IMG/VR virus record: IMGVR_UViG_643348545_000005 | Source of the DNA: a virus | Taxonomy: Duplodnaviria; Heunggongvirae; Uroviricota; Caudoviricetes | Length of the DNA: 40,336 nt | Direction: 5' to 3' (one strand) | The notes under the pieces: generated by a model | Database searches by the model: none | The model's input: the letters and a program-made list of their open reading frames with translations, nothing else | What the model was told of the DNA's origin: nothing | Translations under genes and position numbers: made by a program | Shown here: positions 9,483-36,620 of the stretch, piece after piece | How the letters are laid out: every line of letters starts with the position of its first letter | How positions within the stretch are numbered: the first letter of the stretch is position 1

Positions 9483-9492
9483 AGGTCACTGT

Positions 9493-10080: not shown

Positions 10081-10091
10081 GAGTCTCTCCG

Positions 10092-14966: not shown

Positions 14967-14981
14967 GCCCCCTCCTGTGTG

Positions 14982-19408: not shown

Positions 19409-19512
19409 GCCTGTCTCCGTAAAAATCAGGCGGTGGGCAACCGGTAAAAAGAACGCGAAGCCTGTTCAGATCACCGGTTGCGCCGCCTGCCGACGAGGTG
19501 CGGTTCGTTAAA

Positions 19513-20310
19513 TCAGTTTGTTTTGCGCGCGGCTTTTTTCTGGCTGGCAGCGCTTTTCTTTTTTGCGCTGCTCTTTTTCCCGCCGGTGGTGGTTTTCCTG
19601 CCCGTTGTGGATGCAGGCACCACCTGATTTCCGTCTGCCAGTTTCCTGACCGCGCGCTCCAGCGTGGCAATTTCACGCTTCACTCCCGAAGCCGGATTGA
19701 TCCGCATGGCTTCACGTAACAGGCTCAGCGACAGACGCAGATCATCGGGAGAGGAGGAGGCGCGGCGGGAAAATGCGCGTGCCTTGTGCAGTTTTGACCT
19801 GACCTGGTCCGGCATATCCTGCTCACTGACCAGGTGGTTCAGCTCATCAAGCATGGCGGTGTACACAGACAAATCCGCCTCGCTGTCCGTTGTGGCCTGC
19901 GTCAGAACGGCGTCAGTAATCTCTTCAGCCAGTACCGTGGCGGCGTCACGGCCAAAGTTATCCGGCAGCGCCAGACCATGGCGGATCACGTACTCCCCGA
20001 TACGCAGTGCCAGCGGGTAGTCACGGCAGTCAATGGCCCACACCATCATGGTGGTGATGACCTCATCCTGGCGTCCGCTGTCTCCTGCCAGGGTGCCTTC
20101 AATCCACCCTTCAAAGTCAGGCAACAGATGTTTTTTAAGCTCTGCCCTGGCGACGTTTGACTGAATACCCTTCAGCTGCATCTGTGCCAGCCTTAACTGG
20201 TGAAGGACCTGTTCATGTGCGGTTCTTTCCCGTTGTGTTTCCCGGGCGTTCATGGTCACCCGGTTGCGGGCCACCGCCTGTTGCACATAGCGTTGTGCCG
20301 GTGTCAGCAT
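19513..20310 (-). CDS. M: Terminase endonuclease (small) subunit M
   Basis: Similarity to P2 gpM; basic Lys-rich C-terminal tail. Confidence 0.85.
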   Translation of the reverse strand: MLTPAQRYVQQAVARNRVTMNARETQRERTAHEQVLHQLRLAQMQLKGIQSNVARAELKKHLLPDFEGWIEGTLAGDSGRQDEVITTMMVWAIDCRDYPLALRIGEYVIRHGLALPDNFGRDAATVLAEEITDAVLTQATTDSEADLSVYTAMLDELNHLVSEQDMPDQVRSKLHKARAFSRRASSSPDDLRLSLSLLREAMRINPASGVKREIATLERAVRKLADGNQVVPASTTGRKTTTGGKKSSAKKKSAASQKKAARKTN

Positions 20311-20350
20311 TTCTCAGCTCCTGTTAACGGGCGCGGCGCGCCCGTCCGGG

Positions 20351-21451
20351 TTATGCTTCGGGTTGCGGCTGTCCGCTTTCGGCGTTGTTGTCCGGATCTT
20401 CACCTGCGAAGGTGATCCCCTCAATCAGCGCGCATTTTCCGTAGTCTTCCACCACGTAGCAGTCATTCATGGACTGGTAAGTCGCGATACGGTTGTATTC
20501 CGGCTCCTCGCGAATGAAACGGCGCAGTGAGCCTTTCTGGAAGTAGATCGACAGGTTTTTCAGCGACGTGATGAGCATGGCGTCTTTCGGGAAGTACGGC
20601 GCAAGATACGTCTGAAGACCACCGACGGTACGGGACGCCACAATCAGCTGCCCGGCAACAAGCTCAGTGTTCGGGTTGGTGGTGCTGATGGCGTTAATCA
20701 TGGGAAGACGCAGTGTATTGAACAGATCCCGCCCCATCAGTACGACCAGATCCGGTGCGTCCTTATGCCATTCATCCAGCACGGATGAGCGGATGTCGTG
20801 CACCATGGCATCCGGGTTACCATAGTCACCTTTTGCCACCAGTTTGTTTTCATCATCGCGACGGGTCAGGGTCATCCCTTTAACCACGCGGGTGGCAGCC
20901 TTGTCGCGGATGTGTTTCAGCCAGCCCGGGTTGACGTCCTGCAGGAGAGGGTTGGTGGCACGATCGGAAATCAGCGCGTGTGACTCCCCGTTGAAACCAA
21001 TCATGATTCGATCCAGGGCTACCTGGCGGGTGATTTGCGCGCTCAGCAGTTGCTGAAAGTTTTTCTGGCTGCTCCATGCGTCAATCTGTGCGTAGCTGAT
21101 GAAGGTATCGTAGTTCACCTGCTCGCAGCGGTAACGGCGTGCATCCAGATCAGCAACTGATGCAGGATTGCGGCGTTTCACTCCGTCGCTCGTTGCGTTC
21201 GTGCTGGCAATGGGGCCGCTGGTGTCAATCAGGACTTTTTCACCTTCCTGGTCATCCACACCGATAAAATTGATTTCCTGTAACAGTCCGGCGCTTTCCT
21301 TGATGGCGTTCTCCATCTTCTGCTGAATGGATGGATCCACGCTGAAGGTTTTACCCAGGCGCTCTGTTGTGATACCAGCCAGCGATGCCTGCTGAATCAT
21401 ATAGCGTTCCAGACTGTCACGTCCTTCACGGGAAAGGGATAAACGGGCCAT
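20351..21451 (-). CDS. N: Major capsid protein N
   Basis: Similarity to P2 gpN throughout (MLQDV..GWL, DPDLVV, NLSIY, YVVEDY). Confidence 0.9.
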   Translation of the reverse strand: MARLSLSREGRDSLERYMIQQASLAGITTERLGKTFSVDPSIQQKMENAIKESAGLLQEINFIGVDDQEGEKVLIDTSGPIASTNATSDGVKRRNPASVADLDARRYRCEQVNYDTFISYAQIDAWSSQKNFQQLLSAQITRQVALDRIMIGFNGESHALISDRATNPLLQDVNPGWLKHIRDKAATRVVKGMTLTRRDDENKLVAKGDYGNPDAMVHDIRSSVLDEWHKDAPDLVVLMGRDLFNTLRLPMINAISTTNPNTELVAGQLIVASRTVGGLQTYLAPYFPKDAMLITSLKNLSIYFQKGSLRRFIREEPEYNRIATYQSMNDCYVVEDYGKCALIEGITFAGEDPDNNAESGQPQPEA

Positions 21452-21468
21452 AAATTACTCTTCTCCTG

Positions 21469-22305
21469 TCAGAATTCAGCCAGTGTCTGGTCAGTGCCGC
21501 CAGCGGAAGTAAAACGCTGCTGTGGATCGGCATCCTGGTTTCTCAGTTGCGCTTTCAGTGCTGCAAGCTCGAGACTGAGCTCATCCAGCGCCGTTTTGTC
21601 GAGGGCATGTTTCTGCTCCAGAGTGCTGAAACGGTCGATAAGATCTGCATGATCGGATGCGATGTTTTCCACAACGTCGCGCAGCTGGCTGAACTGCTCG
21701 CCATCCGCTGTGCGTGTTTTGCTGATGAGTGCCATGACGCGGCTGAACCACTGACGGCTCTCTTCCGTTCGCTGTTCTGTGGTGGTAAGCATCTCTGCTT
21801 CCATGGCGACGGTGAACATGGAGGGTTCTGTTGTGCACTTACTGAACTGCATGATGCTGGCGCGTTGCTGTGCGGCAAACTTCAGGCGTTCAGTGCCCAG
21901 ACTTGCTGGCGTGTCGGTCATTGCCAGACCCACAATGTAAGGCCCCTTGACGGCGTCCAGCTCAGGCAACACCTCAATGCTCGAATACACTTTTTTCCCG
22001 TCAGCAATCATGTTTTTCATGCGGTCGGTGGGTTCAATTTCGGCATATAACGCTGTACGCCCTGCCAGTTTCCCTTCGGTGATTTCATCAGTTGACAGAG
22101 CGATCAGATCACCCACTGCGCAGAGTTCACTGGATGGCCACATCGAAAGGACGTGCTCAATGTTCACCCGGGAGGCGTAAACGGACGGGTCATAGTTTTC
22201 TGCGGCCTGACGCAGCATTTCACCAGAAATTTCACGTCCGTCGATGGTTGAACCGGAAACGGCAACGCGAAATTTTTTGCGCTCTGGCGTGTTTTTGCTT
22301 CCCAT
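21469..22305 (-). CDS. O: Capsid scaffolding protein O
   Basis: Similarity to P2 gpO (FRVAVSG...DGR.IS). Start set at the ATG at 22305 with a GGAG RBS; the track ORF starts slightly upstream. Confidence 0.85.
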   Translation of the reverse strand: MGSKNTPERKKFRVAVSGSTIDGREISGEMLRQAAENYDPSVYASRVNIEHVLSMWPSSELCAVGDLIALSTDEITEGKLAGRTALYAEIEPTDRMKNMIADGKKVYSSIEVLPELDAVKGPYIVGLAMTDTPASLGTERLKFAAQQRASIMQFSKCTTEPSMFTVAMEAEMLTTTEQRTEESRQWFSRVMALISKTRTADGEQFSQLRDVVENIASDHADLIDRFSTLEQKHALDKTALDELSLELAALKAQLRNQDADPQQRFTSAGGTDQTLAEF

Positions 22306-22377
22306 GGAAATTCTCCATAACCTGGTCGTTTTTCCCATGATGGCGGTAGAGAACGGTGTGTCTCAAGGTGCTTAAGT

Positions 22378-22395
22378 TGTATGGCGACGGGGACA
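22378..22395. promoter_or_regulatory. Candidate Ogr-type late promoter element (TGT-N12-ACA) in the divergent O/P intergenic region
   Basis: TGTatggcgacggggACA about 65 bp upstream of the P start; P2 late promoters carry a TGT-N12-ACA dyad near -55. Confidence 0.35.
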
Positions 22396-22460
22396 ACGCG
22401 GGCAGGTATCAGGCGGTATTGCTGAGGCTTAATCTTGCCCTGTTAATGTCAGGGGGTGCA

Positions 22461-24194
22461 ATGATCCAGGATGTCTTTATTCGTATGCGGGCGAAACAGC
22501 TTTACTGGCAGGGGTATACCCCGGCGGATATCGCTCAGCTGATGGGAATAAACCAGAACACGGTTTATTCGTGGAAAAAACGCGATGAGTGGGATGCAAC
22601 TCCCCCGATCCAGCGGGTCACCCAGTCCATTGATGCACGCCTGATACAGCTCACCGCCAAACCGGATAAAAGCGGCGGTGACTTTAAGGAAATTGACCTG
22701 CTGACGCGCCAGCTGAAAAAACTGAATGACGGTCAGGGAGAACAGGCTGTTTCCGGTAAGAAGCCCCGCAGGCGCAAACTGAAAAATCACTTCACCGAAG
22801 AGCAGATTGTCGCACTCAGGGAAAAAATCCTGCCGTCACTGGCCTGGCATCAGCGCGAATGGTACGACAACCGCCATCACCGCAACCGCATGATCCTGAA
22901 GTCGCGTCAGATTGGTGCGACCTGGTATTTTGCGCGCGAAGCACTCCTTGATGCACTGCGTGATGATGTCTCCGCCGGGTACCAGCGCAACCAGATATTT
23001 TTGTCCGCATCCCGTCGCCAGGCATATCAGTTCAAACACTTTATTCAGCAGGCGGCGCTGGAAGTTGATGTCGAACTGAAAGGGGGGGACAAGATTGTTT
23101 TGTCTAACGGTGCAGAGCTTCACTTCCTTGGCACATCGGCAGCAACCGCTCAGTCGTATACCGGACACCTTAAATTTGATGAATTTTTTTGGGTCAGTAA
23201 CTTTGTGGAACTCAGGAAGGTTGCTGGGGCAATGGCGACACTGGAAGGGCTTACGCGAACCTACTTTTCAACACCGTCAGGTGAAACACATGAGGCGTAT
23301 CAGTTCTGGACGGGGGACCGCTGGAACAGCGAACAGCCACGCTCAAAACGCAGTGAGTTTGATGTTTCACATGCGCATCTGAAGGGGGGCGTGCTCTTTC
23401 CTGACGAAACATGGCGGCAGATTGTCACTATTGAGGATGCTGTCGCTAACGGATGGCGGTACACCAATATTGGTGTTATTCGCAGCGAAAATACAGAAAG
23501 TGAATTTCGTAATCTGTACATGTGCGAATTTGTCCGTGATGGTGAGGCAGCCTTCAGCCTGAGTGCGCTCACCGGCTGCGGTGTTGACGGCTATGACGAA
23601 TGGCCTGACTGGAAACCTTTTGCTGCCCGCCCTATGGGGGTGAGGGAGGTCTGGCTTGGGTATGACGCCAACGGCAGCAGCGGGAAGGGGGACTGCGGGG
23701 CACTGTCGGTGTGCGTGCCGCCCCTTGTTGCCGGTGGGCGTTTTCGCACGGTGGAAACTGTCAGGGTTCAGGGGATGGAGTTTGAACAGCAGGCCGCACT
23801 GATTGAGGAATACACCCAAAAATATAACGTGAAACATATCGGCATTGATGTGACCGGCGGGAACGGGGAGGGGGTTTATCAGATTGTGAAAAAGTTTTTC
23901 CCGATGGCCGTACCGTACAACTTCAATATCGCCTCCAAGCGGGCACTGGTCATGAAAATGCTTCAGGTGGTGCGTGCCGGACGCTGGGAGTATGACCGCA
24001 GTGAACGTGACCTGATCCAGGCATTCGCATCGGTGCGAAAAATACAGACACCCGGCGGCTATATCACCTACGACACCGACCGCTCCCGTGGCGTCAGCCA
24101 TGGTGACCTCGCCTGGGCAACCATGCTTGCTGTTATCAATGAGCCAATTGGTGCGGAGCGTGAGGATAATCGCGGCTTTGCAATGGAGTTCTGA
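22461..24194 (+). CDS. P: Terminase ATPase (large) subunit P
   Basis: Similarity to P2 gpP. Start set at the ATG at 22461 preceded by a GGGGG RBS. Confidence 0.9.
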   Translation: MIQDVFIRMRAKQLYWQGYTPADIAQLMGINQNTVYSWKKRDEWDATPPIQRVTQSIDARLIQLTAKPDKSGGDFKEIDLLTRQLKKLNDGQGEQAVSGKKPRRRKLKNHFTEEQIVALREKILPSLAWHQREWYDNRHHRNRMILKSRQIGATWYFAREALLDALRDDVSAGYQRNQIFLSASRRQAYQFKHFIQQAALEVDVELKGGDKIVLSNGAELHFLGTSAATAQSYTGHLKFDEFFWVSNFVELRKVAGAMATLEGLTRTYFSTPSGETHEAYQFWTGDRWNSEQPRSKRSEFDVSHAHLKGGVLFPDETWRQIVTIEDAVANGWRYTNIGVIRSENTESEFRNLYMCEFVRDGEAAFSLSALTGCGVDGYDEWPDWKPFAARPMGVREVWLGYDANGSSGKGDCGALSVCVPPLVAGGRFRTVETVRVQGMEFEQQAALIEEYTQKYNVKHIGIDVTGGNGEGVYQIVKKFFPMAVPYNFNIASKRALVMKMLQVVRAGRWEYDRSERDLIQAFASVRKIQTPGGYITYDTDRSRGVSHGDLAWATMLAVINEPIGAEREDNRGFAMEF

Positions 24195-24199
24195 ACACA

Positions 24200-25242
24200 A
24201 TGAGTAAACGCAAAAATACACCGGAAAGCGGGGGCAGGATTCGCTACACGATGCACTGAAATCAACGCCTGCACTCAGCGCATTCACCTTTGATGGGCCC
24301 TATGAAGTCAGCCGCATGGATCTCCTGGATAACATGTCATGTGCAGATAACGGGCGCTACTTTGATACCCCCATGGACTGGAACGCTATCGCCCGTGCAT
24401 CCCGTCGTGCGTCCTGGCATCAGTCGGCTTTGTACTTCAAGCGCAACGCCCTGAACGGGTGCTTTGTTCCTCACCCTCTGCTGTCCCGCCAGGCGTTTTC
24501 AGCGTTTGCGCTCGACTGGTTTGTGTTTGGTAATGCCTATCTTGAAGTGCGGCGTAACAGGCTGGGGGAACCACTCCTGCTTCGCCCGGCACTGGCAAAA
24601 TATACACGCAGGGGAAGTGACCTGGATACCTACTGGTATCTCAACGACGACGGTACGGAGTTCAGTTTCAGGAAAGGGACTGTGTGCCACGTGCTTAATC
24701 CTGATATTAATCAGGAGATCTACGGGATGCCGGAATATATCGGCGGGTTGCTGTCTGTCAGCCTGTCAAACTCAGCGGATACATTCCGCAAACTCTACTA
24801 CGATAACGGCTCGCATGCCGGGTGTATTATCTATGTAGGCACATCTCAGGCGAATGCGGAAAGTGTCGAGGCCATTAAAAAAACGCTTACGGATTCCCGT
24901 GGTCGCGGGGCGTTTAAAAACCTGTTTCTACATGCACCGGGTGGTGGCAAGGATGGTGTGCAAATACTGCCGTTCCAGCAGATAACCGCAAAGGATGAAT
25001 TCCTGAACATCAAGGGGAGCGCCCGCGACGATATCCTTGCTGCCCATCGTGTACCACCTCAACTGATGGGGGCAATGCCTGACGGGAATGCGGCGTTTGG
25101 TGACGTTGAAAAAGCGGCGAGAGTGTTTTTCATCAACGAGTTGCAACCTGTCATGGAGGCCATGAAGCATGTCAATGAATGGCTTGGCGTTGAGGTGATG
25201 CGCTTTAACCCCTATGCCCTGCTTCTGGATAACGCCAGCTGA
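24200..25242 (+). CDS. Q: Portal protein Q; apparent frameshift near the 5-prime end (possible pseudogene or sequencing error)
   Basis: ATG at 24200 (5 nt after the P stop) encodes MSKRKNTPESGG... and hits a stop at 24257-24259; the portal-like remainder is in another frame that is open from 24208 (first in-frame ATG at 24316). The frames meet at a G5 run at 24230-24235. Confidence 0.6.
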
Positions 25243-25269
25243 CGCGCTTCGCTTGTCTGCTGCTTCGCC

Positions 25270-25292
25270 GGGGCATAAAAAATTTATGCCCC
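25270..25292. terminator. Bidirectional hairpin terminator between convergent Q and the 167-aa gene
   Basis: Perfect 10-bp stem ggggcataaa/tttatgcccc with a 3-nt loop. Confidence 0.5.
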
Positions 25293-25307
25293 GACTCTCC
25301 AGCTCTC

Positions 25308-25811
25308 TTAACGGAATGCGGATGGCGTTCTTCTTTGCAGCTTGCTGATAATATGCATCTTCATACTGTTTACTATCGGCAGCCATTCCCTGTCACCGTC
25401 TCCGTTGATGACCACGCGAATGGAGGTATCATCTTCCACGCGAACCCGAAGAGATACACCGTCTTTTCCGACGGAATGTAACTCCATTGCCAGGACTATG
25501 TTTACCGACTCTCCTTCATCGTGTGAGTCAACCCATGTTCTTACAGCCATCCGGAATATGTTATCTGTGTCGGTTGCAATCATATTTACCGGAAATGGCC
25601 TGAAGTCCCGATCGTTTCTGCACGGAAACCCCGTATCAACGTAACGATGATGCTCGCCGTCTTTGTCTTCCCATGTCTCTGAAGGCAATTCCAGCCACTG
25701 CTCATAAAAAGCAACCAGCTTTTCAGCCTGATTGCGCAGAATCCCTGTAACCTCCCGCCTCGCGTCCCGGCTCTTTTTGTTTGCCAGGTACAAATCGCGA
25801 AAATGGCTCAT
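25308..25811 (-). CDS. Hypothetical protein (167 aa), cargo gene at the portal/cos side
   Basis: Clean ORF with ordinary codon composition; no family I can recognise; lies in the variable region of P2-like phages. Confidence 0.5.
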   Translation of the reverse strand: MSHFRDLYLANKKSRDARREVTGILRNQAEKLVAFYEQWLELPSETWEDKDGEHHRYVDTGFPCRNDRDFRPFPVNMIATDTDNIFRMAVRTWVDSHDEGESVNIVLAMELHSVGKDGVSLRVRVEDDTSIRVVINGDGDREWLPIVNSMKMHIISKLQRRTPSAFR

Positions 25812-26356
25812 GTCGCTCTCCTTTGGTCTGTTTATGCCAGCCTGTATTCTGCGCTCACCTCATATTGTGCGCAAGTTTTCACCCGTGAATGACTGATACT
25901 TTAAATTCTATTAACTTTATGATTTCAGTGATTTTTGTCTCTCTTTTTTATCCCGTTCGTCACGTCCGTTTCCCTCCCGATCTCCGACCTCGCCAGACGC
26001 AATCAGACGCATTCTGACGGCCTGTTTCCCTGACCATGTTTTGATGTGGTTTTTCAAAACTGACTTTACTGCGTGCGTATCACGCGCCATACGACCCCAA
26101 ATAAAGCAACCCGCCTTCCATCCCTCAATTCGGGCGCCCTTCCCTCGTCGCCTGCGCGCTGCAATTGCCTCGTTTTTCGTGCACCGTGCAAACCGGCCTC
26201 AGCCAGCGCCGTTACTGGGCTGAATGGGGATGAAACACATAAGAAAAATTGTGCAATTTCGTGCGCTTTTGTGCATTTTTTATCTTGCGATTTTTGGGGG
26301 TGGGTGGTGATGATAATCATCTGTCTGAATCAGTGGTGTATTGCCGGGTGAGAACT

Positions 26357-26893
26357 GTGAAAAATTACTCATATCCTTATTTAACTTTTGTCACGCTTTC
26401 TGTTTTGGGGGGGATTTTTCTTTTTATTTGGTGGCGAAACGATGTTTACAGAATTACCTACCTTTATTCGTTCACGACAAACTGCCTTGTTTCAGTGTCT
26501 GTGGTGCTTTCGGTTTTTGTCTCACTGTGCCTGTTGAAAAAGAACCTGGTTGATCGGTCTAAATTTACCGGGGTTACATCGTATCTTAAGTTTTTTTCGG
26601 GTATGTGCCTTCTTACCTGGATGATTCTGTTTACCCTCCTGGTTACGCTGATATATTTTCTTCCGGGTGAAGATTCATTCTATTCCGCTCCCTATGAGTA
26701 CAGTCGCGGTAGCTCAAAAAGTTGTTCAGGGGCATTTGTTGATGATCCTGATTTGCAAAAAACAATCTTTATTTGCTACCCATACGGTGACTATCAGGAT
26801 GGTAATGTGATTTATGTGAAGAAGCGTGTGAATGCGCTGGGTGCGGTGGTCACCTATGCATACGCGACAAGCGGCCGATTTCGGTTTGACTGA
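26357..26893 (+). CDS. Hypothetical AT-rich membrane protein (about 3 TM helices plus a roughly 85-aa soluble C-terminal domain)
   Basis: ORF in an AT-rich island; hydrophobic segments; start uncertain (GTG at 26357 with a GGGTGAG RBS, or the internal ATG near 26599). Confidence 0.35.
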   Translation: MKNYSYPYLTFVTLSVLGGIFLFIWWRNDVYRITYLYSFTTNCLVSVSVVLSVFVSLCLLKKNLVDRSKFTGVTSYLKFFSGMCLLTWMILFTLLVTLIYFLPGEDSFYSAPYEYSRGSSKSCSGAFVDDPDLQKTIFICYPYGDYQDGNVIYVKKRVNALGAVVTYAYATSGRFRFD

Positions 26894-26942
26894 AAAAAGA
26901 AATCCTGTGTTACCCTCGCTGCTGAGGGTAACATGCGTGAAG

Positions 26943-27198
26943 TCATCGCCCGGTTCTTGAGCTGATAATGCTTTGCGTCAGCAGCTGCCAGCCCTCTTTC
27001 TGTTGCCCGTACTTGTCCTGATACCTGTTTACCTGCAAGTTTCCGTGCACCAGAATCAGATCGCCTTTTCTGTGTTTTGCCAGTTCTTCGTGCTGCTTCC
27101 CGAATGAAATAAGGTAAAGCCACATTGTGGTTGGCTGTTCTGCGCCATGGCAGGGTAGTGATACCGCCAGTTGTGCCGTTGTGACGTTTGAGGTAGCC
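26943..27198 (-). pseudogene. SSB-like OB-fold protein gene, 3-prime portion (interrupted by the IS)
   Basis: Translation ...TSNVTTAQLAVSLPCHGAEQPTTMWLYLISFGKQHEELAKHRKGDLILVHGNLQVNRYQDKYGQQKEGW aligns with the SSB core (W..V.LFGK...RKG..V.I.G.L..R.W.D..GQ); the frame runs up to the IS left end. Confidence 0.45.
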
Positions 27199-27252
27199 TG
27201 AGTTTAACGGACACTCCTTCCTGAAATAGAATGGCATCAGAAGGAGCTAATA

Positions 27253-27555
27253 ATGAGCAGAAAAACCCAACGTTACTCTAAAGAGTTCAAAGCCGAAGCT
27301 GTCAGAACGGTTCTTGAAAATCAACTTTCGATCAGTGAAGGCGCTTCCCGATTATCTCTTCCTGAAGGCACTTTAGGACAATGGGTTACCGCCGCCAGAA
27401 AAGGGCTCGGTACTCCTGGTTCCCGCACGGTGGCTGAACTGGAATCTGAAATTCTGCAACTGCGTAAGGCGTTAAATGAAGCTCGCCTTGAGCGAGATAT
27501 ATTAAAAAAAGCAACAGCGTATTTTGCACAGGAGTCGCTGAAAAATACGCGTTAA
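27253..27555 (+). CDS. IS3-family transposase OrfA (HTH)
   Basis: 100-aa ORF with the typical IS3-family OrfA leucine-zipper end (...LERDILKKATAYFAQESLKNTR). Confidence 0.85.
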   Translation: MSRKTQRYSKEFKAEAVRTVLENQLSISEGASRLSLPEGTLGQWVTAARKGLGTPGSRTVAELESEILQLRKALNEARLERDILKKATAYFAQESLKNTR

Positions 27556-28409
27556 TCGAACAATGGCGACAACAATTTCCCATTGAAGCGATGTGTCAGG
27601 TATTTGGTGTATCCAGGAGCGGTTATTACAACTGGGTACAGCATGAACCCTCAGACATAAAACAAAGTGATGAGCGGCTAAAACTGGAGATTAAGGTGGC
27701 ACATATCCGCACTCGCGAAACATATGGAACCCGGCGGCTCCAGACGGAGCTGGCAGAGAATGGCATCATCGTTGGTCGTGACCGACTGGCACGTCTTCGT
27801 AAGGAGCTAAGGCTACGCTGTAAGCAGAAACGCAAGTTCAGAGCGACTACGAACTCGAACCACAATCTGCCAGTTGCGCCAAATCTGCTGAACCAGACGT
27901 TCGCTCCTACAGCACCAAATCAGGTCTGGGTGGCGGACCTGACGTATGTTGCCACACAGGAGGGATGGTTGTACCTCGCTGGCATCAAAGATGTTTATAC
28001 GTGCGAAATTGTCGGCTACGCCATGGGAGAGCGCATGACAAAAGAGCTGACAGGTAAAGCCCTGTTTATGGCGCTCAGGAGCCAGCGCCCACCTGCCGGG
28101 CTAATCCACCACTCTGATCGAGGTTCACAGTACTGCGCATACGATTACCGGGTCATACAGGAGCAGTTTGGTCTGAAAACATCAATGTCGCGTAAAGGTA
28201 ACTGTTACGACAACGCTCCGATGGAAAGCTTCTGGGGAACGCTGAAAAATGAGAGCCTGAGCCACTATCGTTTTAATAACCGGGATGAAGCCATCTCAGT
28301 AATACGGGAATACATTGAGATTTTCTACAATCGTCAGCGTCGTCACTCTCGTCTGGGGAATATCTCCCCGGCAGCCTTCAGGGAAAAATATCATCAGATG
28401 GCTGCTTAA
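27504..28409 (+). CDS. IS3-family transposase OrfB (DDE catalytic domain), expressed as an OrfAB fusion by -1 frameshift at A AAA AAA G (27504-27511)
   Basis: The -1 frame is open from the slippery site and encodes an rve-type integrase core (...VADLTYV...HHSDRGSQY...NAPMESFWGTLKNE...). Confidence 0.8.
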   Translation, partial: KKSNSVFCTGVAEKYALIEQWRQQFPIEAMCQVFGVSRSGYYNWVQHEPSDIKQSDERLKLEIKVAHIRTRETYGTRRLQTELAENGIIVGRDRLARLRKELRLRCKQKRKFRATTNSNHNLPVAPNLLNQTFAPTAPNQVWVADLTYVATQEGWLYLAGIKDVYTCEIVGYAMGERMTKELTGKALFMALRSQRPPAGLIHHSDRGSQYCAYDYRVIQEQFGLKTSMSRKGNCYDNAPMESFWGTLKNESLSHYRFNNRDEAISVIREYIEIFYNRQRRHSRLGNISPAAFREKYHQMAA

Positions 28410-28442
28410 AAAAAGAACAAATGGTAGTGTCCGCTATTGCCA

Positions 28443-28527
28443 GTACACCTCAGTTGGTTCCTTTGGTTGTTCTCCTTGTGTTCGGGTCTGCTGCCAGTCG
28501 TCCCTCTGTTGCAACCTGTGTTGGCAT
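28443..28527 (-). pseudogene. SSB-like gene, 5-prime fragment on the other side of the IS
   Basis: ATG at 28527 with a GGGAGA RBS encodes MPTQVATEGRLAADPNTRRTTKGTN, matching the SSB N-terminal GNLGQDPEVRYMPNG signature; the frame does not join cleanly to the 3-prime part. Confidence 0.35.
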
Positions 28528-28559
28528 ATTTGTCTCCCGTGTTGGTTTTATTGTTGGGG

Positions 28560-28898
28560 TTAGATGACTGGCAGCTCTTCGCCAGCGCCGTAGATAAACA
28601 GAATTCGCTTCATGATTTCGCTTCGCTTGCAGTCCTGGATTACGGACGGCTTTTGTTGCTGTTCAGCCCGCCGCTCCAGCTCCAGTCGTTCCTTTTCCGT
28701 TGGCTTCCGGTAATGCGTTATCTTGTCCGTGTACCCGTCCACAACCAGCAGCCCTTCGCGTACCATCTTTCCGGCGGCCTGATTAATGATGGTCCTTTTC
28801 ACGCCCAGTTTTTCAACCAGCTCTGGCGCGCTGAAGCGTGCGTGCGTTTCCAGGTAGCGTAAAATGATTACCTTTCCGGTCATTCTGGGTGTCTTCAT
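28560..28898 (-). CDS. Hypothetical winged-helix DNA-binding protein (about 112 aa)
   Basis: AGGAG RBS before the ATG at 28898; the FSAPELVEKLGVKRTIINQAAGKMVREGLL segment looks like a winged HTH; ATGA overlap with the upstream gene stop. Confidence 0.45.
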   Translation of the reverse strand: MKTPRMTGKVIILRYLETHARFSAPELVEKLGVKRTIINQAAGKMVREGLLVVDGYTDKITHYRKPTEKERLELERRAEQQQKPSVIQDCKRSEIMKRILFIYGAGEELPVI

Positions 28899-29065
28899 TT
28901 GGCGGCTCCTTCGTTGTTCCGGCGTTCGCGGAGTTCGGTCAGTGCTGCCAGTAAATTTTCCCACCATGTTTCTTCCACAACCGGATTTCGTCGTGAAAGC
29001 AGCTGCTGCGCCGACTCAATCATTTTCGTAAGCTCTTTGTCGCTGATCCTCCTGATGTCGTTCAT
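28895..29065 (-). CDS. Hypothetical small protein (about 56 aa)
   Basis: GGAG RBS 7 nt upstream of the ATG at 29065; translationally coupled to the downstream gene. Confidence 0.4.
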   Translation of the reverse strand: MNDIRRISDKELTKMIESAQQLLSRRNPVVEETWWENLLAALTELRERRNNEGAAK

Positions 29066-29113
29066 GGTGTGCTCCTTCGGTTTGCTGTTTCTGGTCATGT
29101 TCATGGTCTTTTG

Positions 29114-29518
29114 TTACCTGCGTGATTGCCTGCTGGCGGCCGAATGCACATAGCTGACAATTGCCGCTTTTCGGTTAACGACGGCCAGCGTTCTTGCCAG
29201 TTCTTCGTTGAGTTTTCTGGTCTGTTTTTCGTGGTATGCCTGCATGATTTTTCCTACGGGAGTCAGTGGTTCAGGCTCTGATATGGCGCGACGAGGGCGC
29301 ACGGCAACGATGAATGCGCTTCTGTCGGTGTTGGTTCTTGCAGTCAGGATGTCGGTCATGACGGTATCTGTGCTGCGATCGGGGTTTGCGATCGTGATCT
29401 CCAGTTCGTCGCCTGGCTGTGGTCGAACACTGACGCCGCTCAGCGTCAGTGCCGGAATGCGTCCACTCATGATGGCGCTGAAATCATGGTGCTGGAGTAC
29501 ACAATGGAATCGTGTCAT
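29114..29518 (-). CDS. Hypothetical protein (134 aa) translationally coupled to gene A
   Basis: Start overlaps the A stop (ATGA); same position as the small ORF downstream of A in P2. Confidence 0.5.
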   Translation of the reverse strand: MTRFHCVLQHHDFSAIMSGRIPALTLSGVSVRPQPGDELEITIANPDRSTDTVMTDILTARTNTDRSAFIVAVRPRRAISEPEPLTPVGKIMQAYHEKQTRKLNEELARTLAVVNRKAAIVSYVHSAASRQSRR

Positions 29519-32037
29519 GGGTTCACCTCCGGTTGATCTGCTGCCACCAGGCTTCGTGATTTCTCATCCCAGTGCACAATCCGCCCGTCAGGCAGGCGAA
29601 CGCGTGCACCTCTGTGTACGGAAAGTGCTGCGCCACTGTGTAGCTCCTCGCCCGTCGCGCTCAGTGCCGACTTGATTACGGTGGTGGTGACGTCAGTCAG
29701 CGGCAATGCTGTACGCACATGTATGACGTCATCGGGCGTGGTGGGGCCGCCGGTTTTCACGGTTTTTGTGTCAGATGGCGCATCTTTCAGCTGCCTGGTG
29801 AGTTGTTTTCGCTTTGTGGGGGTCAGTGACCTTAACCACTCACCCAAATCACCTCCCGGGACGACCAGTTTTTGTTCTTTCCTGGTTTCCGGTGGTGGGT
29901 TTTTACCCTCTCCGGTGTCTGTTTTTTCATCATGGGGACAGTTATTGCCACGAGTCCAAGGTGCGGCAAAGCCGCACTCAACGTCAAAACCCTCGTCCGT
30001 GCGGTCTTCGTTTTCCGGCTTACGTCTGACCAGTTTCCAGGTGTCCGGGTGGGTGCATATGGTGTGGCGCTCCCCGAGTAACGGGGCGCGGACGCCGTAA
30101 ATGCGCTGCGGGAATTCGCCGTAGTCGTTGGCCTCATCTGCGGTTTCGTATGCGGTGCGGATCAGGTACAGGTTGCGTGGAATGAGCACGCCGCCCTGAC
30201 GGTTGATGTAGGTGGCAAAACACCCCACGTCAGCGGCGGCCAGAATGGCGTCAATGTCGTCATGGTCCAGGCGCTTCGGTGATGCGGGGTTACGCTCCAT
30301 TTGTCCGGCAAGGCGGCGGAGTTCACGCCATACCTGGCGGGGCGGGATACCGAAGAACTGGAACTGCCGGATGCGGTGGAGACTCGCCCAGGCAATGGCG
30401 TTTTCCACGGTTTCCGCCATGGTTTTTCCCGATTCTTTATCGGCGTAAGGTTTGCCGGTTTTCGGGTCATTGTCGTGAAAGGTGCTGGCGTCCAGGTTCT
30501 TGCCAATATAGGTTGCGATGTAGCTTGCCGGTGTGCCTTTTGCCGGGTCGATTTTTTCGCACTTGAAGCGCGGAGAAATATCATTCCCCAGTTCTGCGCG
30601 ATCTGATTTGATTGCTGCGTCACGCATGATTTCAATGATGCGTTCTTCATTGTCCGGGGCGGTGAATACCAGCATGTGCCAGTGCGGTGTGCCGTCATGG
30701 TGTGGCTCAACGGTGCGCACCCCGTACCAGCTCAGGCCTTCTTTGTTGAGTTTTTTTCTTGCAGCTGCAAAGACGTCGTAAACCAGATAATCACTGGCAT
30801 CGCGCACGGTGGCACCGTTGTATTTCGGGTTCAGGCTGCCGTCCTCGTTTACGCTGTGAAAGCGGGAAGGGCAGGTCACTGTCACGAAGAACGCGGAGTC
30901 ACCACGCGATTCGGCGACCTGTTCCATCCCTCTGACGCAGGCCATCATCTCGTTGCGGCGGTTGCGCGGATTCCCCAGCCCTGACCAGTACACGTCCTCC
31001 AGACTCAGGCGTTCACCGTCTTCGTTTTCAATGTCCCAGCTTTTGAGAAAATCACGGGTGCGCTGGCGTTTCTCCCGGAATTCCTGGAGTGACTCATGGC
31101 TGATGTAGGGGGATGCCTTGCGCGATACTCTTCCGGCGGCACGCAGTAATTCCTCCCGCCAGAGATCAGCGAGGTGGCGCAGCTGGTTGTTCCACCAGGT
31201 AGCGCAGGTGATACGCATTACCGCGCCCGGTACCAGTTCAGGGTCTGGTGCCGTGCGGCGGTCACGTCTGATCTCGAGTGACGGCCAGTATGGTGGGTTC
31301 ACGCCCAGTTTTATTGCCATGCGCGCCAGCTGCTGGTAAGTCAGCAACCAGGTAAACAGGTTATCGTCGCCTTTTCCTGTCCGCTCAGTAACTTCATCAC
31401 ATATGCGTTCCAGTTCGGTGGAAAATGCCGCCGCCGTTAGTGTGGCAAGGCGCTGAATTTGATCACGGTTGAGTTGTGGCAGCATGAGTAATTCATCAAG
31501 GCGATGGCGTGCTGCGGTGGCTTTGAATGCCGTCGTGGCGAAGCATTCATTCACCTGTTCGATGCGTTTCAGGCGTGTGCGCAGTCCACGGCGAACAAAG
31601 TTATCAGCCACGTGTGTATTGTTGTTTTTCACGCCTTCATGGCGGGCGCTTTGCTGTTTGCGGTTTAAACGCGTCAGATCACGAATGAGCGCGTTGCCAA
31701 GAAACGAGGGCAGGGCGCGAAGTTCTGCCATGGCTTCCGATACCACCGTGGGCGGATTCTCGCGTTTGTGCCGCGCCAGTTTTTCCAGTCTGATCCGACG
31801 CTCTTCGTTGTGGTGAAGGTGCGAATTAATTCGCTTCCCTTCGTCTGTGGTTGTCAGAAAGGCGACGGTTTCTTCATCCAGTCTGGCATCAATGCGAATG
31901 TCCTCGTTGATGTAGCTCTGAATGGCCTGGCGTAATGCGGTTGGCTGTGCTCTGCCGAACGTTTCAGGATCGATAACCGGTAGCGGGGCGTTCCACGGGT
32001 ACGCCAGTTGTGCGTTATGGTCGCTCATGCGTCGCAC
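29515..32037 (-). CDS. A: Replication initiation endonuclease A (rolling-circle nickase)
   Basis: 840 aa; similarity to the P2 gpA family, including TVTCPSRFH and the active-site tyrosine region YIATYIGKN. Confidence 0.9.
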   Translation of the reverse strand: MRRMSDHNAQLAYPWNAPLPVIDPETFGRAQPTALRQAIQSYINEDIRIDARLDEETVAFLTTTDEGKRINSHLHHNEERRIRLEKLARHKRENPPTVVSEAMAELRALPSFLGNALIRDLTRLNRKQQSARHEGVKNNNTHVADNFVRRGLRTRLKRIEQVNECFATTAFKATAARHRLDELLMLPQLNRDQIQRLATLTAAAFSTELERICDEVTERTGKGDDNLFTWLLTYQQLARMAIKLGVNPPYWPSLEIRRDRRTAPDPELVPGAVMRITCATWWNNQLRHLADLWREELLRAAGRVSRKASPYISHESLQEFREKRQRTRDFLKSWDIENEDGERLSLEDVYWSGLGNPRNRRNEMMACVRGMEQVAESRGDSAFFVTVTCPSRFHSVNEDGSLNPKYNGATVRDASDYLVYDVFAAARKKLNKEGLSWYGVRTVEPHHDGTPHWHMLVFTAPDNEERIIEIMRDAAIKSDRAELGNDISPRFKCEKIDPAKGTPASYIATYIGKNLDASTFHDNDPKTGKPYADKESGKTMAETVENAIAWASLHRIRQFQFFGIPPRQVWRELRRLAGQMERNPASPKRLDHDDIDAILAAADVGCFATYINRQGGVLIPRNLYLIRTAYETADEANDYGEFPQRIYGVRAPLLGERHTICTHPDTWKLVRRKPENEDRTDEGFDVECGFAAPWTRGNNCPHDEKTDTGEGKNPPPETRKEQKLVVPGGDLGEWLRSLTPTKRKQLTRQLKDAPSDTKTVKTGGPTTPDDVIHVRTALPLTDVTTTVIKSALSATGEELHSGAALSVHRGARVRLPDGRIVHWDEKSRSLVAADQPEVNP

Positions 32038-32441
32038 TCCCCGGCAGTTGCCACCTGAAACGCCGCGCGGTACAGCACGAGAAGGCGCTGGTATTCGCCG
32101 ATAAAACCTTCTGCGGTGTATATACCTTTCACGGCCACGCTGTGGGTTGTCATTTCCAGAACCAGCGCCATCTCTGATGACGACCAGCTGATGGCGGTAC
32201 TGTCGGTGCCGTTGATGTGAAATAAACCCAGTCCATCACCATCACCTTTCACGTCCACGCGGTAACGACCGTCCACGGTGAAGGAGAAATCCCCGTATGT
32301 GGTGACGCTGCGGGCAGCCTGTTTACAGGCGCGGCGGTAATAGTCGTGCCAGTTGTTCAGGCGGGAAGCCAGCAGGGGATCCACCGCCCACATCCAGTTA
32401 AAGAAGTCCTGAATATCTGAAAGTCCCTTAACGCTCTTCAT
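32025..32441 (-). CDS. Hypothetical protein (138 aa), overlaps the start of A
   Basis: ORF immediately upstream of A in the same operon. Confidence 0.5.
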   Translation of the reverse strand: MKSVKGLSDIQDFFNWMWAVDPLLASRLNNWHDYYRRACKQAARSVTTYGDFSFTVDGRYRVDVKGDGDGLGLFHINGTDSTAISWSSSEMALVLEMTTHSVAVKGIYTAEGFIGEYQRLLVLYRAAFQVATAGECDA

Positions 32442-32509
32442 GAGAACCTCCGGTAACAGACGTGCGGAAGCCTCCCGCGTGCAGGTGTGGGATAGCTTCC
32501 GGATGTGGT

Positions 32510-32731
32510 TTATCGGTGCTGGTTGATGAGGCTTTGCAGTTCTGCCAGATCTTCGGCGAGATAGCTGAAGACAGCAGCGCAGTAACGGTTTGACAGCGCG
32601 TGCGTGCGCTCATGCAGCATGTTGATATGCATGATTTGTGCGACGCGTGTTGCGCGGAAAAGTCTGCGGTTGATTTCGCTGCGGATGTGAAGACGCTCAG
32701 CGCGGGCGCGCTGTTGCTTGCGGTTTGCCAT
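32510..32731 (-). CDS. Hypothetical protein (73 aa)
   Basis: Small basic ORF upstream of the 138-aa gene. Confidence 0.4.
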   Translation of the reverse strand: MANRKQQRARAERLHIRSEINRRLFRATRVAQIMHINMLHERTHALSNRYCAAVFSYLAEDLAELQSLINQHR

Positions 32732-33069
32732 GGTGTGGCCTCTTTGCTAGTAAGTTGTGAAAACTCACCATCCAGAGCTGCGAAACTGTGGGTGGCGAGA
32801 CGTACGAGGTTCGCAGTACCGGCTAGCAAAGAACCCGGCCCGACCGAAGTCGGCCCCGTACGCCCCGCCATAATTCTGACGCGAAAAAGACGTGGCAATA
32901 CAGTACGCACAAAAAAACCGCTGGCGCGGTTGTGCGCTTTGCTAGTCGGCAGGCTGCGAAACCCGGCACCCGTTTTATGAGGTGCAGCGGAAATGTAACC
33001 CGACACGACGAGCGCTGGCAAGCGGTTTTTGTGTTGCGTGTTGATGTGGTTAGAATGTTGCGAATTAAT

Positions 33070-33089
33070 ATCACCTGGCAACTGGTGAT
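33070..33089. promoter_or_regulatory. Palindromic operator-like site ATCACC-N8-GGTGAT
   Basis: Perfect 6-bp inverted repeat with an 8-bp spacer, 26 bp upstream of the ATG at 33115 and next to -35/-10-like hexamers (TTGATG ... TAATAT). Confidence 0.3.
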
Positions 33090-33114
33090 TGTCTGCATAC
33101 GCGGGGTGTTTCTG

Positions 33115-33579
33115 ATGAGTGATAAGCTCCCTTCTGATTACGAAATTCTTTTTGACCTGTGGTACAGCTACTGGCTTGAACACATGACAAACCTTCTCCA
33201 CCGTCGCGCTTCCTTGGTTCTGAGGATTAGCGCTTTCCTTGCGATTGTTGCCGCATTCATTTTTTGCGACAGCGCAACGTTTGTTTTCGCCAGTGTGGTG
33301 CTCTTTCTGGTGTGGCAGGTCATGGCTGCCTCTCTTTCTATCAGAGCTGAAAAGGCTGAATGGCAGGCGCTTAGCTATCAAAGACTGATTAGCCAGCGCC
33401 ACGTGCTCACCCCGGAATGCATGATTGCGCGCCTCTCCTTTGTTGAGGAAAGTGACAGCCCCGTGATGGAGTGCATGATCAACCTTGCCTGGAATAAAGC
33501 CTGTGAGACGGTTGGTAGCTCTTCGCGCAATCATGTTTCGATCTCCGGTCGGTTACTCAGTCGCCTGTGTGGCTTTTGA
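33115..33579 (+). CDS. Hypothetical 2-TM membrane protein (154 aa), antisense to the early operon
   Basis: ATG at 33115; two hydrophobic helices (LVLRISAFLAIVAAFIFC, FVFASVVLFLVWQVMAASL); its 3-prime end overlaps the convergent DUF4406 gene. Confidence 0.45.
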   Translation: MSDKLPSDYEILFDLWYSYWLEHMTNLLHRRASLVLRISAFLAIVAAFIFCDSATFVFASVVLFLVWQVMAASLSIRAEKAEWQALSYQRLISQRHVLTPECMIARLSFVEESDSPVMECMINLAWNKACETVGSSSRNHVSISGRLLSRLCGF

Positions 33580-33903
33580 TTTGTGAAGCAGCTGCGCGAC
33601 GGTTTCGCCGGCTGCCCGGTTTTCCGGGAATGACACTGGCATGTTCAGTTTGAGTGCCATTACGTACTCCGCCCGCGCGCCAGCTGAATCCACCCAGCCT
33701 TCCAGTAAGTAAATGGCATCGGCACACATGAGCATCGGAATACAAATGCTCATGTACTGCTGCTGGCTTAATCCTTCCGGCAACGTGGCAGGGTTCAGCA
33801 CAACGTGCCCGTCTGCCGCGAGCCTCATCGCCTCTGTGAAAAACGCCGTTCTGTTGTGATCTTTGTATCCGGTCATTGGACCGGCGATATAAATCACTGC
33901 CAT
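33553..33903 (-). CDS. DUF4406 family protein (nucleoside 2-deoxyribosyltransferase-like)
   Basis: IYIAGPMTG N-terminal motif typical of DUF4406 proteins found in P2-like early regions. Confidence 0.55.
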   Translation of the reverse strand: MAVIYIAGPMTGYKDHNRTAFFTEAMRLAADGHVVLNPATLPEGLSQQQYMSICIPMLMCADAIYLLEGWVDSAGARAEYVMALKLNMPVSFPENRAAGETVAQLLHKSKATQATE

Positions 33904-34112
33904 GCTTTACCTCCCGTATTGCGTGTTGCTGTCAGCACGCGTACTTCTTCCATGTTCGTGGCGCAGAAGTGCGAACCGTTGATAAGGCGGATGTGATGCA
34001 TCTCAGAATTGCGTGAGTCCTGGCGTGTCATGCCCTGGTCAATCAGGCTTTCGTCTACCTCGTACTGACGGCCGTTGGCTGTGAACCGGATAACGGTTGA
34101 TTCCTGGATCAT
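33894..34112 (-). CDS. Hypothetical protein (72 aa)
   Basis: ORF overlapping its neighbours within the early operon. Confidence 0.4.
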   Translation of the reverse strand: MIQESTVIRFTANGRQYEVDESLIDQGMTRQDSRNSEMHHIRLINGSHFCATNMEEVRVLTATRNTGGKAWQ

Positions 34113-34345
34113 TGCTGACTCCTTTGCCCGGCAGATTTCTCGTTGAGCTGCTTTTTAAGGGTGGCGATTTCACTTTCCTGATCCTGAATCACCCGGATTG
34201 CTTCCATGGTGATCCTCAGTGAGATTGCTGAAGCGATAACGAGATCTGGTCTTCCAGCAGCTGCGATAACTTTTGCTGCTTCCTCATGTGCACGGGCGAT
34301 GAGACGCAATTCCCGCAAAAGCTCTTTGTTGTTTTCGCTATTCAT
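34109..34345 (-). CDS. Hypothetical protein (78 aa)
   Basis: ORF overlapping its neighbour within the early operon. Confidence 0.4.
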   Translation of the reverse strand: MNSENNKELLRELRLIARAHEEAAKVIAAAGRPDLVIASAISLRITMEAIRVIQDQESEIATLKKQLNEKSAGQRSQQ

Positions 34346-34380
34346 TTCCTGACTCCGGTGTTACTGATTCATCTGTTTAT

Positions 34381-35361
34381 TCACGTACTGGCAGGGGTAA
34401 ACATCACGCTGTAAGTTGCATCTCCCGTTACAGGTCCGCAGTCCGGGCAGTAGCCACCGCCATGGTGACCGCAGGCGTCGCACTGTCTCAGGGTGGCGAT
34501 AACCTCCGGTGCTGATTCCCGGGTTCTTGCGCCAACGCTTCGTGGTGCCTGTATGCAGTTCATCCGGTAACCCCGATAAATGCGTCGTGTTTCCGGTGTG
34601 TCGGAATTGGAGATGGTGATGCTGGTCATGCCGCCCGTTTCCTGTGAAAGGCGGTCAAGCGCTGCCCTCAGACGAACGTGCTCGTCTTCATCGAATGGTT
34701 TTCCGTAGGCGGTAAAATTGTCCCGGCCACTGAATTGCAGGTAAGGGGGATCGCAGTACACGCAAAGCGTGTTGCCCATGCCGAACAGGTGACTGGCAGA
34801 GTTCAGCGTATCCTTAAAATCTGCGTGGATAAGCAGCGTTCGGGTGCTGTTTGCCTTGTCTGCAAATGCGCGGATTTCACGCTCAGGGAAGTAGGGCTTG
34901 CGGTAGCAGCCGAAAGGCACGTTAAAATCGCCTTTTCCGTTCACGCGGAACAAACCGTTAAAGCTGTGCCGGTTCAGGTACAAAAACATGGCGGCCAGTC
35001 GCAGTTCACGGCGGTCGCTTATTCCCGTTCTGCTGTTCAGGAAGGCATGATTCTCTGCGTTAAAGGTTTCGCGAATGATGAGATAGTCACCCCTGTTGTT
35101 GTGGTTCAGGAACAGGGTTTTCGCCTCGTCGATCAGGCTGTCGGTGTTGTCCCTGGCTTGCCGGTAGAAATTAATCAGCGCACCATTGGAATCACCCAGG
35201 ATGTAACGCTTGTAACTGGTGTTCATGAATACCGATGCGCCACCCACAAACGGCTCAACCAGGCAGTCTGCTTCTGGCAGATGCGCCTTCAGTGTGTTCA
35301 TGATGCGACTTTTTCCGCCCACCCATTTAAGCGGCGTGCCGGATAACAGTTCTTTGCTCAT
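34381..35361 (-). CDS. dam: DNA adenine methyltransferase (Dam family, N6-adenine) with a C-terminal Cys4 zinc-ribbon extension
   Basis: LKWVGGK (AdoMet motif I) and DPPY (motif IV) match Dam family signatures; C-terminus CDACGHHGGGYCPDCGP. Confidence 0.8.
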   Translation of the reverse strand: MSKELLSGTPLKWVGGKSRIMNTLKAHLPEADCLVEPFVGGASVFMNTSYKRYILGDSNGALINFYRQARDNTDSLIDEAKTLFLNHNNRGDYLIIRETFNAENHAFLNSRTGISDRRELRLAAMFLYLNRHSFNGLFRVNGKGDFNVPFGCYRKPYFPEREIRAFADKANSTRTLLIHADFKDTLNSASHLFGMGNTLCVYCDPPYLQFSGRDNFTAYGKPFDEDEHVRLRAALDRLSQETGGMTSITISNSDTPETRRIYRGYRMNCIQAPRSVGARTRESAPEVIATLRQCDACGHHGGGYCPDCGPVTGDATYSVMFTPAST

Positions 35362-35585
35362 AACGCGGCCTCTTTGTTATAGGTTTCGTGCGTTAATAAA
35401 TCCCATGACGCCCCGTTGTTTTTGCTCAGCAATCGCCAGCGAAAACCGATTCTTATTACCAGGTAGTCGTGGGGTTTTATGCGTGAAAAATTCCGCACGC
35501 CGTCGCGGAATAAACGCAGCGATGCGCGGGCTTTTCTTTCCACGTTCAGGGGGGGGCAGCAACACACATTCAGGATGGCGACCAT
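35358..35585 (-). CDS. Hypothetical small protein (75 aa)
   Basis: ORF wedged between the exonuclease and dam genes; atypical composition, so low confidence. Confidence 0.25.
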   Translation of the reverse strand: MVAILNVCCCPPLNVERKARASLRLFRDGVRNFSRIKPHDYLVIRIGFRWRLLSKNNGASWDLLTHETYNKEAAL

Positions 35586-35594
35586 GGCTTCACC

Positions 35595-36185: not shown

Positions 36186-36406
36186 CCCTTCAGTTCGTCT
36201 GGGTTGGCGAGTATTGCAATCAGTCGTTCAATGGCTGCGCAGGTTTCCTGTGGACAGGTGTGTGTCTCTTTCGCTGTCTCAGTCAGCTCGCGCAGTAATT
36301 CGCAGATATGTGCACGCTCGGCTTTTCTTGCGGCCATGCTGATATGCGCATGATGGTTAGCTGGTCTGGCGGTTATTTCTCTGCCGGGTGATTCGGCTGT
36401 TCTCAT
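36176..36406 (-). CDS. Hypothetical Cys-containing protein (about 76 aa)
   Basis: ATG at 36406 with an AGGAG RBS; the track ORF extends upstream. Confidence 0.4.
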   Translation of the reverse strand: MRTAESPGREITARPANHHAHISMAARKAERAHICELLRELTETAKETHTCPQETCAAIERLIAILANPDELKGCA

Positions 36407-36512
36407 TTGTTGACTCCTGAAAAAAAGACAAAGGGAACCCGAAGGCATGAATGCCTTAATTAATTGCTCGTGTGTTTTCTGGTGTTATTCCGCGCCTGCT
36501 TTCGGCTTCAGG

Positions 36513-36608: not shown

Positions 36609-36620
36609 AAGGTTTTCGCT

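Follow-up and report, generated by a model that had tools for sequence, protein, structure and literature searches.

An IS600 insertion in an accessory single-stranded DNA-binding protein gene of a P2-like Escherichia coli prophage

A small accessory gene for a single-stranded DNA-binding protein (SSB) in a P2-like prophage adjoining serS of Escherichia coli has, we are nearly certain, been interrupted by a simple insertion of the insertion sequence IS600, which entered at codon 25/26 of the 105-codon ssb gene, duplicated 3 bp (GTT) of its target and left the prophage otherwise unchanged. The prophage was studied in a stretch of 40,336 nucleotides, the IMG/VR record IMGVR_UViG_643348545_000005, which is referred to here as the window. 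The original prediction, made from the letters of the DNA, recognized an IS3-family element in a small SSB-like gene, and to that extent we agree with it; its further statement that the two halves of the gene do not rejoin in frame does not hold once the ends of the element are placed at its terminal repeats. The features on which the argument depends are collected in Table 1.

Table 1. Features of the interrupted ssb locus and its surroundings (positions are those of the window)
Feature	Position	Strand	Evidence or remark
P2-type replication initiator gpA	29515..32037	-	Pfam Phage_GPA 362.7 bits; PGAP 'replication endonuclease'
MarR-like winged-helix gene, upstream of ssb	28560..28898	-	PGAP 'MarR family transcriptional regulator' WP_000856784.1
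Shine-Dalgarno-like GGGAGA, 5 nt before the ATG of ssb	28533..28538	-	read from sequence
ssb 5' fragment, codons 1-25, MPTQVATEGRLAADPNTRRTTKGTN	28453..28527	-	ORF list, in-frame join; TGA next, inside IS
Target-site duplication, right copy, GTT	28453..28455		
IS600 (IS3 family), complete copy, 1264 bp	27189..28452	+	ends set by inverted repeats
IRR, ending ...CACCTCA	28426..28452	+	repeat search
IS600 orfB ORF, 272 aa, rve/HTH_21	27591-28409	+	ORF list; Pfam rve 92 bits
OrfAB fusion transposase, predicted, 385 aa after -1 shift	27253..28409	+	uninterrupted translation; rve/DDE integrase core in orfB part
Hairpin directly 3' of slippery site, candidate frameshift stimulator	27513..27553	+	RNA fold -13.1 kcal/mol; inverted repeat
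A AAA AAA G, predicted programmed -1 frameshift motif	27504-27511	+	orfA-frame codons TTA AAA AAA GCA
IS600 orfA, 100 aa, HTH_Tnp_1	27253..27555	+	Pfam PF01527, 73.6 bits
IRL, 27 nt, TGAGGTAGCCTGAGTTTAACGGACACT	27189..27215	+	70% complementary to 28426-28452 (repeat search)
Target-site duplication, left copy, GTT (ssb codon 25, AAC/Asn, on the minus strand)	27186..27188		
ssb 3' fragment, codon 25 (duplicated) to 105 and stop, most of OB fold	26943..27188	-	in-frame join; agrees with WP_016232588.1
Hairpin 26908-26933, with T-rich run 26893-26902 after 5 nt	26893..26933	-	between ssb and convergent plus-strand hypothetical gene

The element and its target site

A single minus-strand gene is split in two by the element, whose transposase is read from the plus strand and hence antisense to ssb. 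It had been described from the outset as an otherwise typical IS3-family member, and each of the parts then listed is present: an OrfA with the Pfam domain HTH_Tnp_1, an OrfB with the rve domain (and a score of 332 bits against NCBIfam transpos_IS3, where the cut-off is 160), and the A AAA AAA G slippery site followed by a hairpin. Its termini are imperfect 27-nt inverted repeats of the form TGAGGT...ACCTCA, with 5'-TG...CA-3' ends, so that all the features of IS600 and the IS3 family are found here together, namely an orfA in frame 0 with an orfB in frame -1, the slippery motif, the TG...CA ends, the 27-nt repeats and a 3-bp target duplication. From 27189 to 28452 the sequence is identical at 1264/1264 positions (100%) to copies that PGAP labels 'IS3-like element IS600 family transposase', and these identical copies stand in many unrelated contexts, among them beside trbG, beside dinD, within a portal gene and within an outer-membrane gene. 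By its sequence, the element is IS600, a member of the IS3 family. IS600 was first described in Shigella sonnei and is common in Shigella and E. coli; the name is taken here from the PGAP-labelled copies rather than from the ISfinder reference. We detect no difference between the present copy, which is complete and apparently active, and the known element, and the site of insertion alone is peculiar to this allele.

By analogy with other members of the IS3 family, the OrfAB transposase would result from a -1 shift of the ribosome on A AAA AAA G, and the hairpin that follows the motif is a candidate stimulator of the shift, its role likewise suggested by what is known of the family. The identical IS600 copies carry the PGAP label 'programmed frameshift', and a search of positions 25200-29600 against Rfam (E<=0.1) returned neither a curated frameshift element nor a small RNA.

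Two independent IS600 copies, located in ansA and in an integrase gene, agree with this one in their ends and in their length of 1264 bp, and each has a 3-bp duplication of its own (CCT and GGT). Both the length and the 3-bp duplication of IS600 rest on the present sequence comparisons, since usable literature on either was not found. A target preference of IS600 was also considered from the likeness of flanks among matches that begin 10-24 nt ahead of the IS end, and was rejected because the ranking of those matches is a selection effect.

The placement of the ends decides how the insertion is to be read. The element had been assigned to 27199-28442, which puts each end 10 bp too far inward, inside the terminal repeats; the inverted repeats instead give 27189..28452. 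With the ends at 27199 and 28442 the flanks had seemed to lack a clean 3-bp duplication, whereas with the corrected ends they read ...GACGTT-IS-GTTGGT..., a clean 3-bp direct repeat at 27186-27188 and 28453-28455. Likewise, when IS600 and one GTT are removed and, on the minus strand, 28527..28456 is joined to 27188..26943, the halves that were thought to be out of frame form an open, in-frame ORF of 105 codons, MPTQVATEGRLAADPNTRRTTKGTNVTTAQLAVSLPCHGAEQPTTMWLYLISFGKQHEELAKHRKGDLILVHGNLQVNRYQDKYGQQKEGWQLLTQSIISSRTGR.

It had been proposed that the insertion was accompanied by a small rearrangement, or that the SSB-like gene had already decayed. That proposal draws on a real observation, for joining the flanks at 27199/28442 does put a stop next to codon 25 and shift the frame, but the observation holds with those ends only, and the apparent frame problem comes from ends called 10 bp within the terminal repeats. 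It was also suggested that the locus be compared with an uninterrupted allele in related prophages, and such alleles exist. Rebuilt without the IS and one GTT, the empty site of 1034 nt is identical at 1034/1034 positions (100.0%) in seven complete E. coli genomes, and is 95-99.9% identical in 15 further ones; in all of these genomes the annotation pairs a 'MarR family transcriptional regulator' with a 'single-stranded DNA-binding protein'. In E. coli strain EC2 the intact gene is a 318-nt CDS (WP_016232588.1) whose translation is the reconstructed 105-aa protein. Aligned to an uninterrupted prophage (L001), positions 25980-27188 of the window fall on 19281-20489 and positions 28453-36751 on 20487-28786, and at the insertion point the two flanks overlap on exactly 3 bases of that prophage (20487-20489). 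The uninterrupted allele therefore matches the joined flanks base for base, which argues against any rearrangement and against earlier decay of the gene; we give either of these next to no chance.

A simple insertion of IS600 also agrees with the rest of the prophage, and no feature of the sequence speaks against it. Over positions 15400-40336 of the window the closest prophage, STEC17-183, is 99.0% identical and aligns in two pieces with 95% coverage, the missing 5% being the IS, and over positions 1-15400 relatives match in one piece. The IS is thus the only large difference from relatives. As in other IS3-family elements, transposition would have been of the copy-out/paste-in type by way of a circle, with the ends joined by 3 bp, which would account for a duplication of 3 bp; IS600 inserted into codon 25/26 of ssb and duplicated the target GTT, and the resulting allele is very probably shared by descent with at least one other mosaic prophage. 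The IS has identical copies elsewhere and its flanks match intact alleles without a difference, by which the insertion is judged to be recent.

The interrupted gene and its product

The 5' fragment had been credited with a ribosome-binding site and an SSB N-terminal signature, and both are there. Its ATG lies at 28527 behind the GGGAGA listed in Table 1, and in the alignment with E. coli SSB its GRLAADPNTRR stands opposite GNLGQDPEVRY. For the joined flanks, too, membership of the SSB family is upheld: the restored protein scores 50.9 bits against Pfam SSB (PF00436), with a gathering score of 26, over profile positions 3-96 of 104, and it matches the 'single strand DNA binding protein' family phrog_44 with E=2.8e-23. 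Its best match among solved SSBs in the PDB has E=2.5e-9. Against NCBIfam TIGR00621 it scores 47.6, under the cut-off of 53.95.

Compared with residues 13-97 of E. coli SSB (PDB 1EYG/1EQQ), the restored protein is 29% identical. In the alignment the aromatic residues W54, F60 and W88 of the E. coli protein correspond to W47, F53 and Y80, whereas the position of W40 falls in a loop that is shortened in the restored protein and has no aromatic counterpart. A larger difference lies at the C-terminus. The E. coli protein continues into a linker and an acidic tip of the DDDIPF type, which recruits partner proteins, whereas the restored protein ends at residue 105 (...SIISSRTGR), with neither the disordered linker nor the acidic tip. 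Naturally short paralogues without the canonical tail are known in the SsbB proteins of Bacillus subtilis and Staphylococcus aureus. The short OB-only chains of S. aureus SsbB (5YYU, 112 aa; 7D8J, 118 aa) are similar in size to the 105-aa protein, and 5yyu is among the best PDB matches both by sequence and by fold; the identity is only ~30-34%, between unrelated organisms and genomic contexts, and no functional link is implied.

The fold was examined in an AlphaFold (AF2) model of a homologue (P0001) that is 97% identical to the restored protein. The model has moderate confidence (pLDDT 69.8), shows the strand and helix order of a single OB fold, and in a Foldseek search its top 50 PDB matches are all SSB OB domains, with TM about 0.6. 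On its profile matches and this predicted structure, the restored product is a real OB domain of the SSB family and not a canonical full-length SSB.

At the point of insertion, the last three bases of the IS on the minus strand (28452-28450) are TGA, in frame directly after ssb codon 25, and the interrupted gene is now an ORF of 25 aa (28450..28527, minus strand). Because the gene stops after 25 codons at this IS-supplied TGA, ssb::IS600 should be a null allele from which the OB fold is not made. Translation could conceivably restart internally at Met46 (ORF 26943..27125, 60 aa), and the product would then be missing the three N-terminal strands of the OB fold.

The remainder of the operon is probably spared. 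The minus-strand genes run in the order gpA, a hypothetical gene of 134 aa, another of 69 aa, the MarR-like winged-helix gene and ssb, so that gpA is the first large gene of the operon and ssb the last; past the hairpin that follows ssb come a convergent plus-strand hypothetical gene and then the portal gene (gpQ; Pfam Phage_portal). No polar effect on other phage genes would be expected, since no further gene stands between ssb and the hairpin that separates the convergent genes. That hairpin (26908-26933) folds as RNA with -19.6 kcal/mol (z = -3.2) and, together with its T-rich run, is plausibly the terminator of the gpA operon. A simple terminator scan passed over this hairpin, as the T run begins too far from the stem.

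Distribution of the gene and of the interrupted allele

The ssb gene is rare. It occurs in 33/5426 complete E. coli genomes and at six related loci in IMG/VR, and a search of 5.8 billion proteins gave nine clusters, in which every full-length member is 105 aa long. A tblastn search of 50,697 deposited phage records (E<=1e-5) returned no match to the SSB, and a protein search of genome contigs gave no confirmed relative. Several of the database relatives are damaged in ways other than by an IS, through frameshifts and a deletion (P0005, P0006, P0007, P0008 and P0009, with P0007 on 51 contigs), and the gene is evidently expendable in lysogens.

The interrupted allele is rarer still. Because no record among the 5426 complete E. 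coli genomes spans the junction when queried with 300 nt across it, the ssb::IS600 allele is itself to be counted as rare, and the exact 36-mer of the left junction, GTGCCGTTGTGACGTTTGAGGTAGCCTGAGTTTAAC, has no match in the GTDB species-representative genomes. We found the allele in one other record only, the IMG/VR contig IMGVR_UViG_2630968933_000003 (L006), in which both junctions are exact. Between this contig and the window a block of 2086 bp centred on the IS (26521-28606) is 100% identical, and outside the block there are 99 differences over 6.35 kb, gathered in discrete patches.

Two accounts can be given of this second occurrence. The simplest reading of the comparison is that one event gave rise to the allele of both the window and L006, and that the flanks later recombined. 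The other account is that IS600 entered each prophage in a separate event, with site and orientation coinciding because the site is a target hotspot, and it can appeal to the 99 differences in the flanking prophage sequences and to the fact that the left flanks of two other IS600 copies somewhat resemble this target. The differences, however, are patchy, a pattern that recombination on either side of a shared allele would produce, while the 2086 bp around the IS are 100% identical; the resemblance of the flanks, moreover, is a selection effect, the matches having been ranked by their reach into the flank among thousands of copies. We therefore regard two independent insertions as very improbable, and read the allele in both records as the outcome of a single insertion.

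A separate issue is whether the loss of ssb is neutral. A tail-less SSB, or the hotspot cassette that contains it, might be costly or toxic to the lysogen, such that null alleles are selected and spread. Several observations are in line with this: the same ssb::IS600 allele stands in two prophage variants with mosaic flanks, several relatives in the databases are damaged in different ways (P0005-P0009), and the gene lies in the gpA-gpQ hotspot with accessory exclusion genes, directly downstream of a gene that matches the PHROG family 'Ren-like exclusion protein'. Neutral decay of accessory prophage genes is nevertheless commonplace, and sequencing errors might account for some of the damaged fragments, which are known from one draft assembly each. 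The locus is present over the full query, with an annotated SSB protein, in at least 22 complete genomes, and the SSB has no match in PADLOC. Selection for the loss of ssb seems to us unlikely, and the insertion is better read as an ordinary event in an expendable gene.

The ssb gene in the gpA-gpQ hotspot

In phage P2 itself, the interval between gpA and gpQ carries old and tin, and to our knowledge P2 has no ssb gene, which fits an accessory role for the ssb of the present prophage. The ssb gene described here lies within the same interval, between gpA and the portal gene gpQ. The P2 gpA-gpQ interval is a hotspot of accessory and anti-phage genes, and WP_016232588 is listed as 'SSB' in several hotspot arrangements of the supplementary table of the study that described it, where the protein was catalogued and not assayed (Rousset et al. 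2022, PMC9122126). When set against the anti-phage genes of the hotspot, this arrangement is distinguished by its co-orientation with gpA and its place directly downstream of it, and it could equally be an accessory of replication.

The neighbouring genes give a mixed picture. The product of the MarR-like gene scores 24.6 against Pfam MarR_2, under the threshold of 27, and matches phrog_142, 'Ren-like exclusion protein', with E=2.8e-29. In PADLOC this protein has a marginal winged-helix match only (E=0.0014), which is not convincing, and the 69-aa and 134-aa hypothetical proteins and the 178-aa and 167-aa ORFs share with the SSB the lack of any PADLOC match. It is unlikely, in our estimate, that an exclusion or counter-defence module is formed by the tail-less 105-aa SSB together with the MarR-like protein and the 134-aa and 69-aa hypothetical proteins encoded after gpA. 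Were this so, an OB-only SSB that is unable to recruit host partners might poison or shield single-stranded DNA intermediates, and IS600 and frameshifts would have inactivated ssb repeatedly because the gene is a burden to the lysogen.

The event itself is of an ordinary and already known kind, a textbook insertion of a known IS into an annotated accessory prophage gene. The locus should be annotated as an ssb::IS600 pseudogene in which the IS runs from 27189 to 28452 and GTT is duplicated, and it offers the lesson that IS ends called 10 bp short can mimic a rearrangement. The biological interest that remains lies in the role of a rare, tail-less SSB in the accessory-gene hotspot of P2-like prophages.

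Mosaic structure and chromosomal sites

The capsid, terminase and portal module of the prophage (19659-25317) has just 81-82% identity to both L001, an uninterrupted ssb locus, and L006, a separate prophage contig (IMGVR_UViG_2630968933_000003), and the adjoining ssb-gpA-early region (25980-36751) has about 98% identity to the same two loci. The prophage in the window is a mosaic. The interval from the portal gene to a hypothetical gene on the plus strand (25318-25979) is without a counterpart in L001 and L006, which are otherwise 98% identical. It is a short patch of variable sequence located where the P2 hotspot, the gpA-gpQ variable interval of P2-like prophages, lies nearest to cos. The 167-aa ORF that overlaps this patch had no match in Pfam or PADLOC. 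One ssb cassette occurs in prophages at different chromosomal sites, beside serS in the window and beside yecA/tyrP in strain EC2.

Features compared in the ssb region and the adjacent patch
Feature	Position	Strand	Remark
ORF, 167 aa	25308-25811	-	overlaps the 25318-25979 patch
Restored ssb gene	26943-27188 + 28456-28527	-	used for comparison
Gene upstream of ssb	28560-28967	-	PGAP name 'MarR family'

The gene upstream of ssb falls under the Pfam MarR_2 threshold (24.6 vs 27), and its match to phrog_142, annotated 'Ren-like exclusion protein', is much stronger (E=2.8e-29). Its overlap with the 69-aa ORF before it suggests that the two are translationally coupled within the gpA operon.

The interrupted allele and other IS600 copies

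The ssb::IS600 insertion is identical in L006, with both junctions exact. When L006 was compared with the window across 25980-32330, identity was 100% across 26521-28606, and the 99 differences outside this segment were grouped in patches (25980-26520, 28607-28675 and 29968-30100). The interrupted allele has thus either entered a mosaic relative or been retained in one.

At two loci with other IS600 copies (L008 and L009), the sequence directly left of IRL, the left terminal inverted repeat, loosely resembles the window target at 27160-27188 (e.g. CGCCAGTTG...GTTGT...GAC). The likeness was discounted as evidence of a target preference, because these matches were chosen by a ranking that favours matches extending into the flank, and it is probably a selection effect. 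An IS600 copy also lies beside wzzB/hisIE in many E. coli genomes, and near wzzB in NZ_CP041431.1 IS30 interrupts the IS600 copy, an IS nested in an IS.

Damaged relatives of the 105-aa SSB

Several of the database relatives of the restored protein (P0005-P0009) are damaged forms. The reading frame switches part-way in P0007, found on 51 contigs, and in P0009; P0008 combines a 21-aa internal deletion with a frameshift, and P0006 shares that deletion and is also cut short. Judging from these sequences, the 105-aa SSB gene seems to have been inactivated repeatedly.
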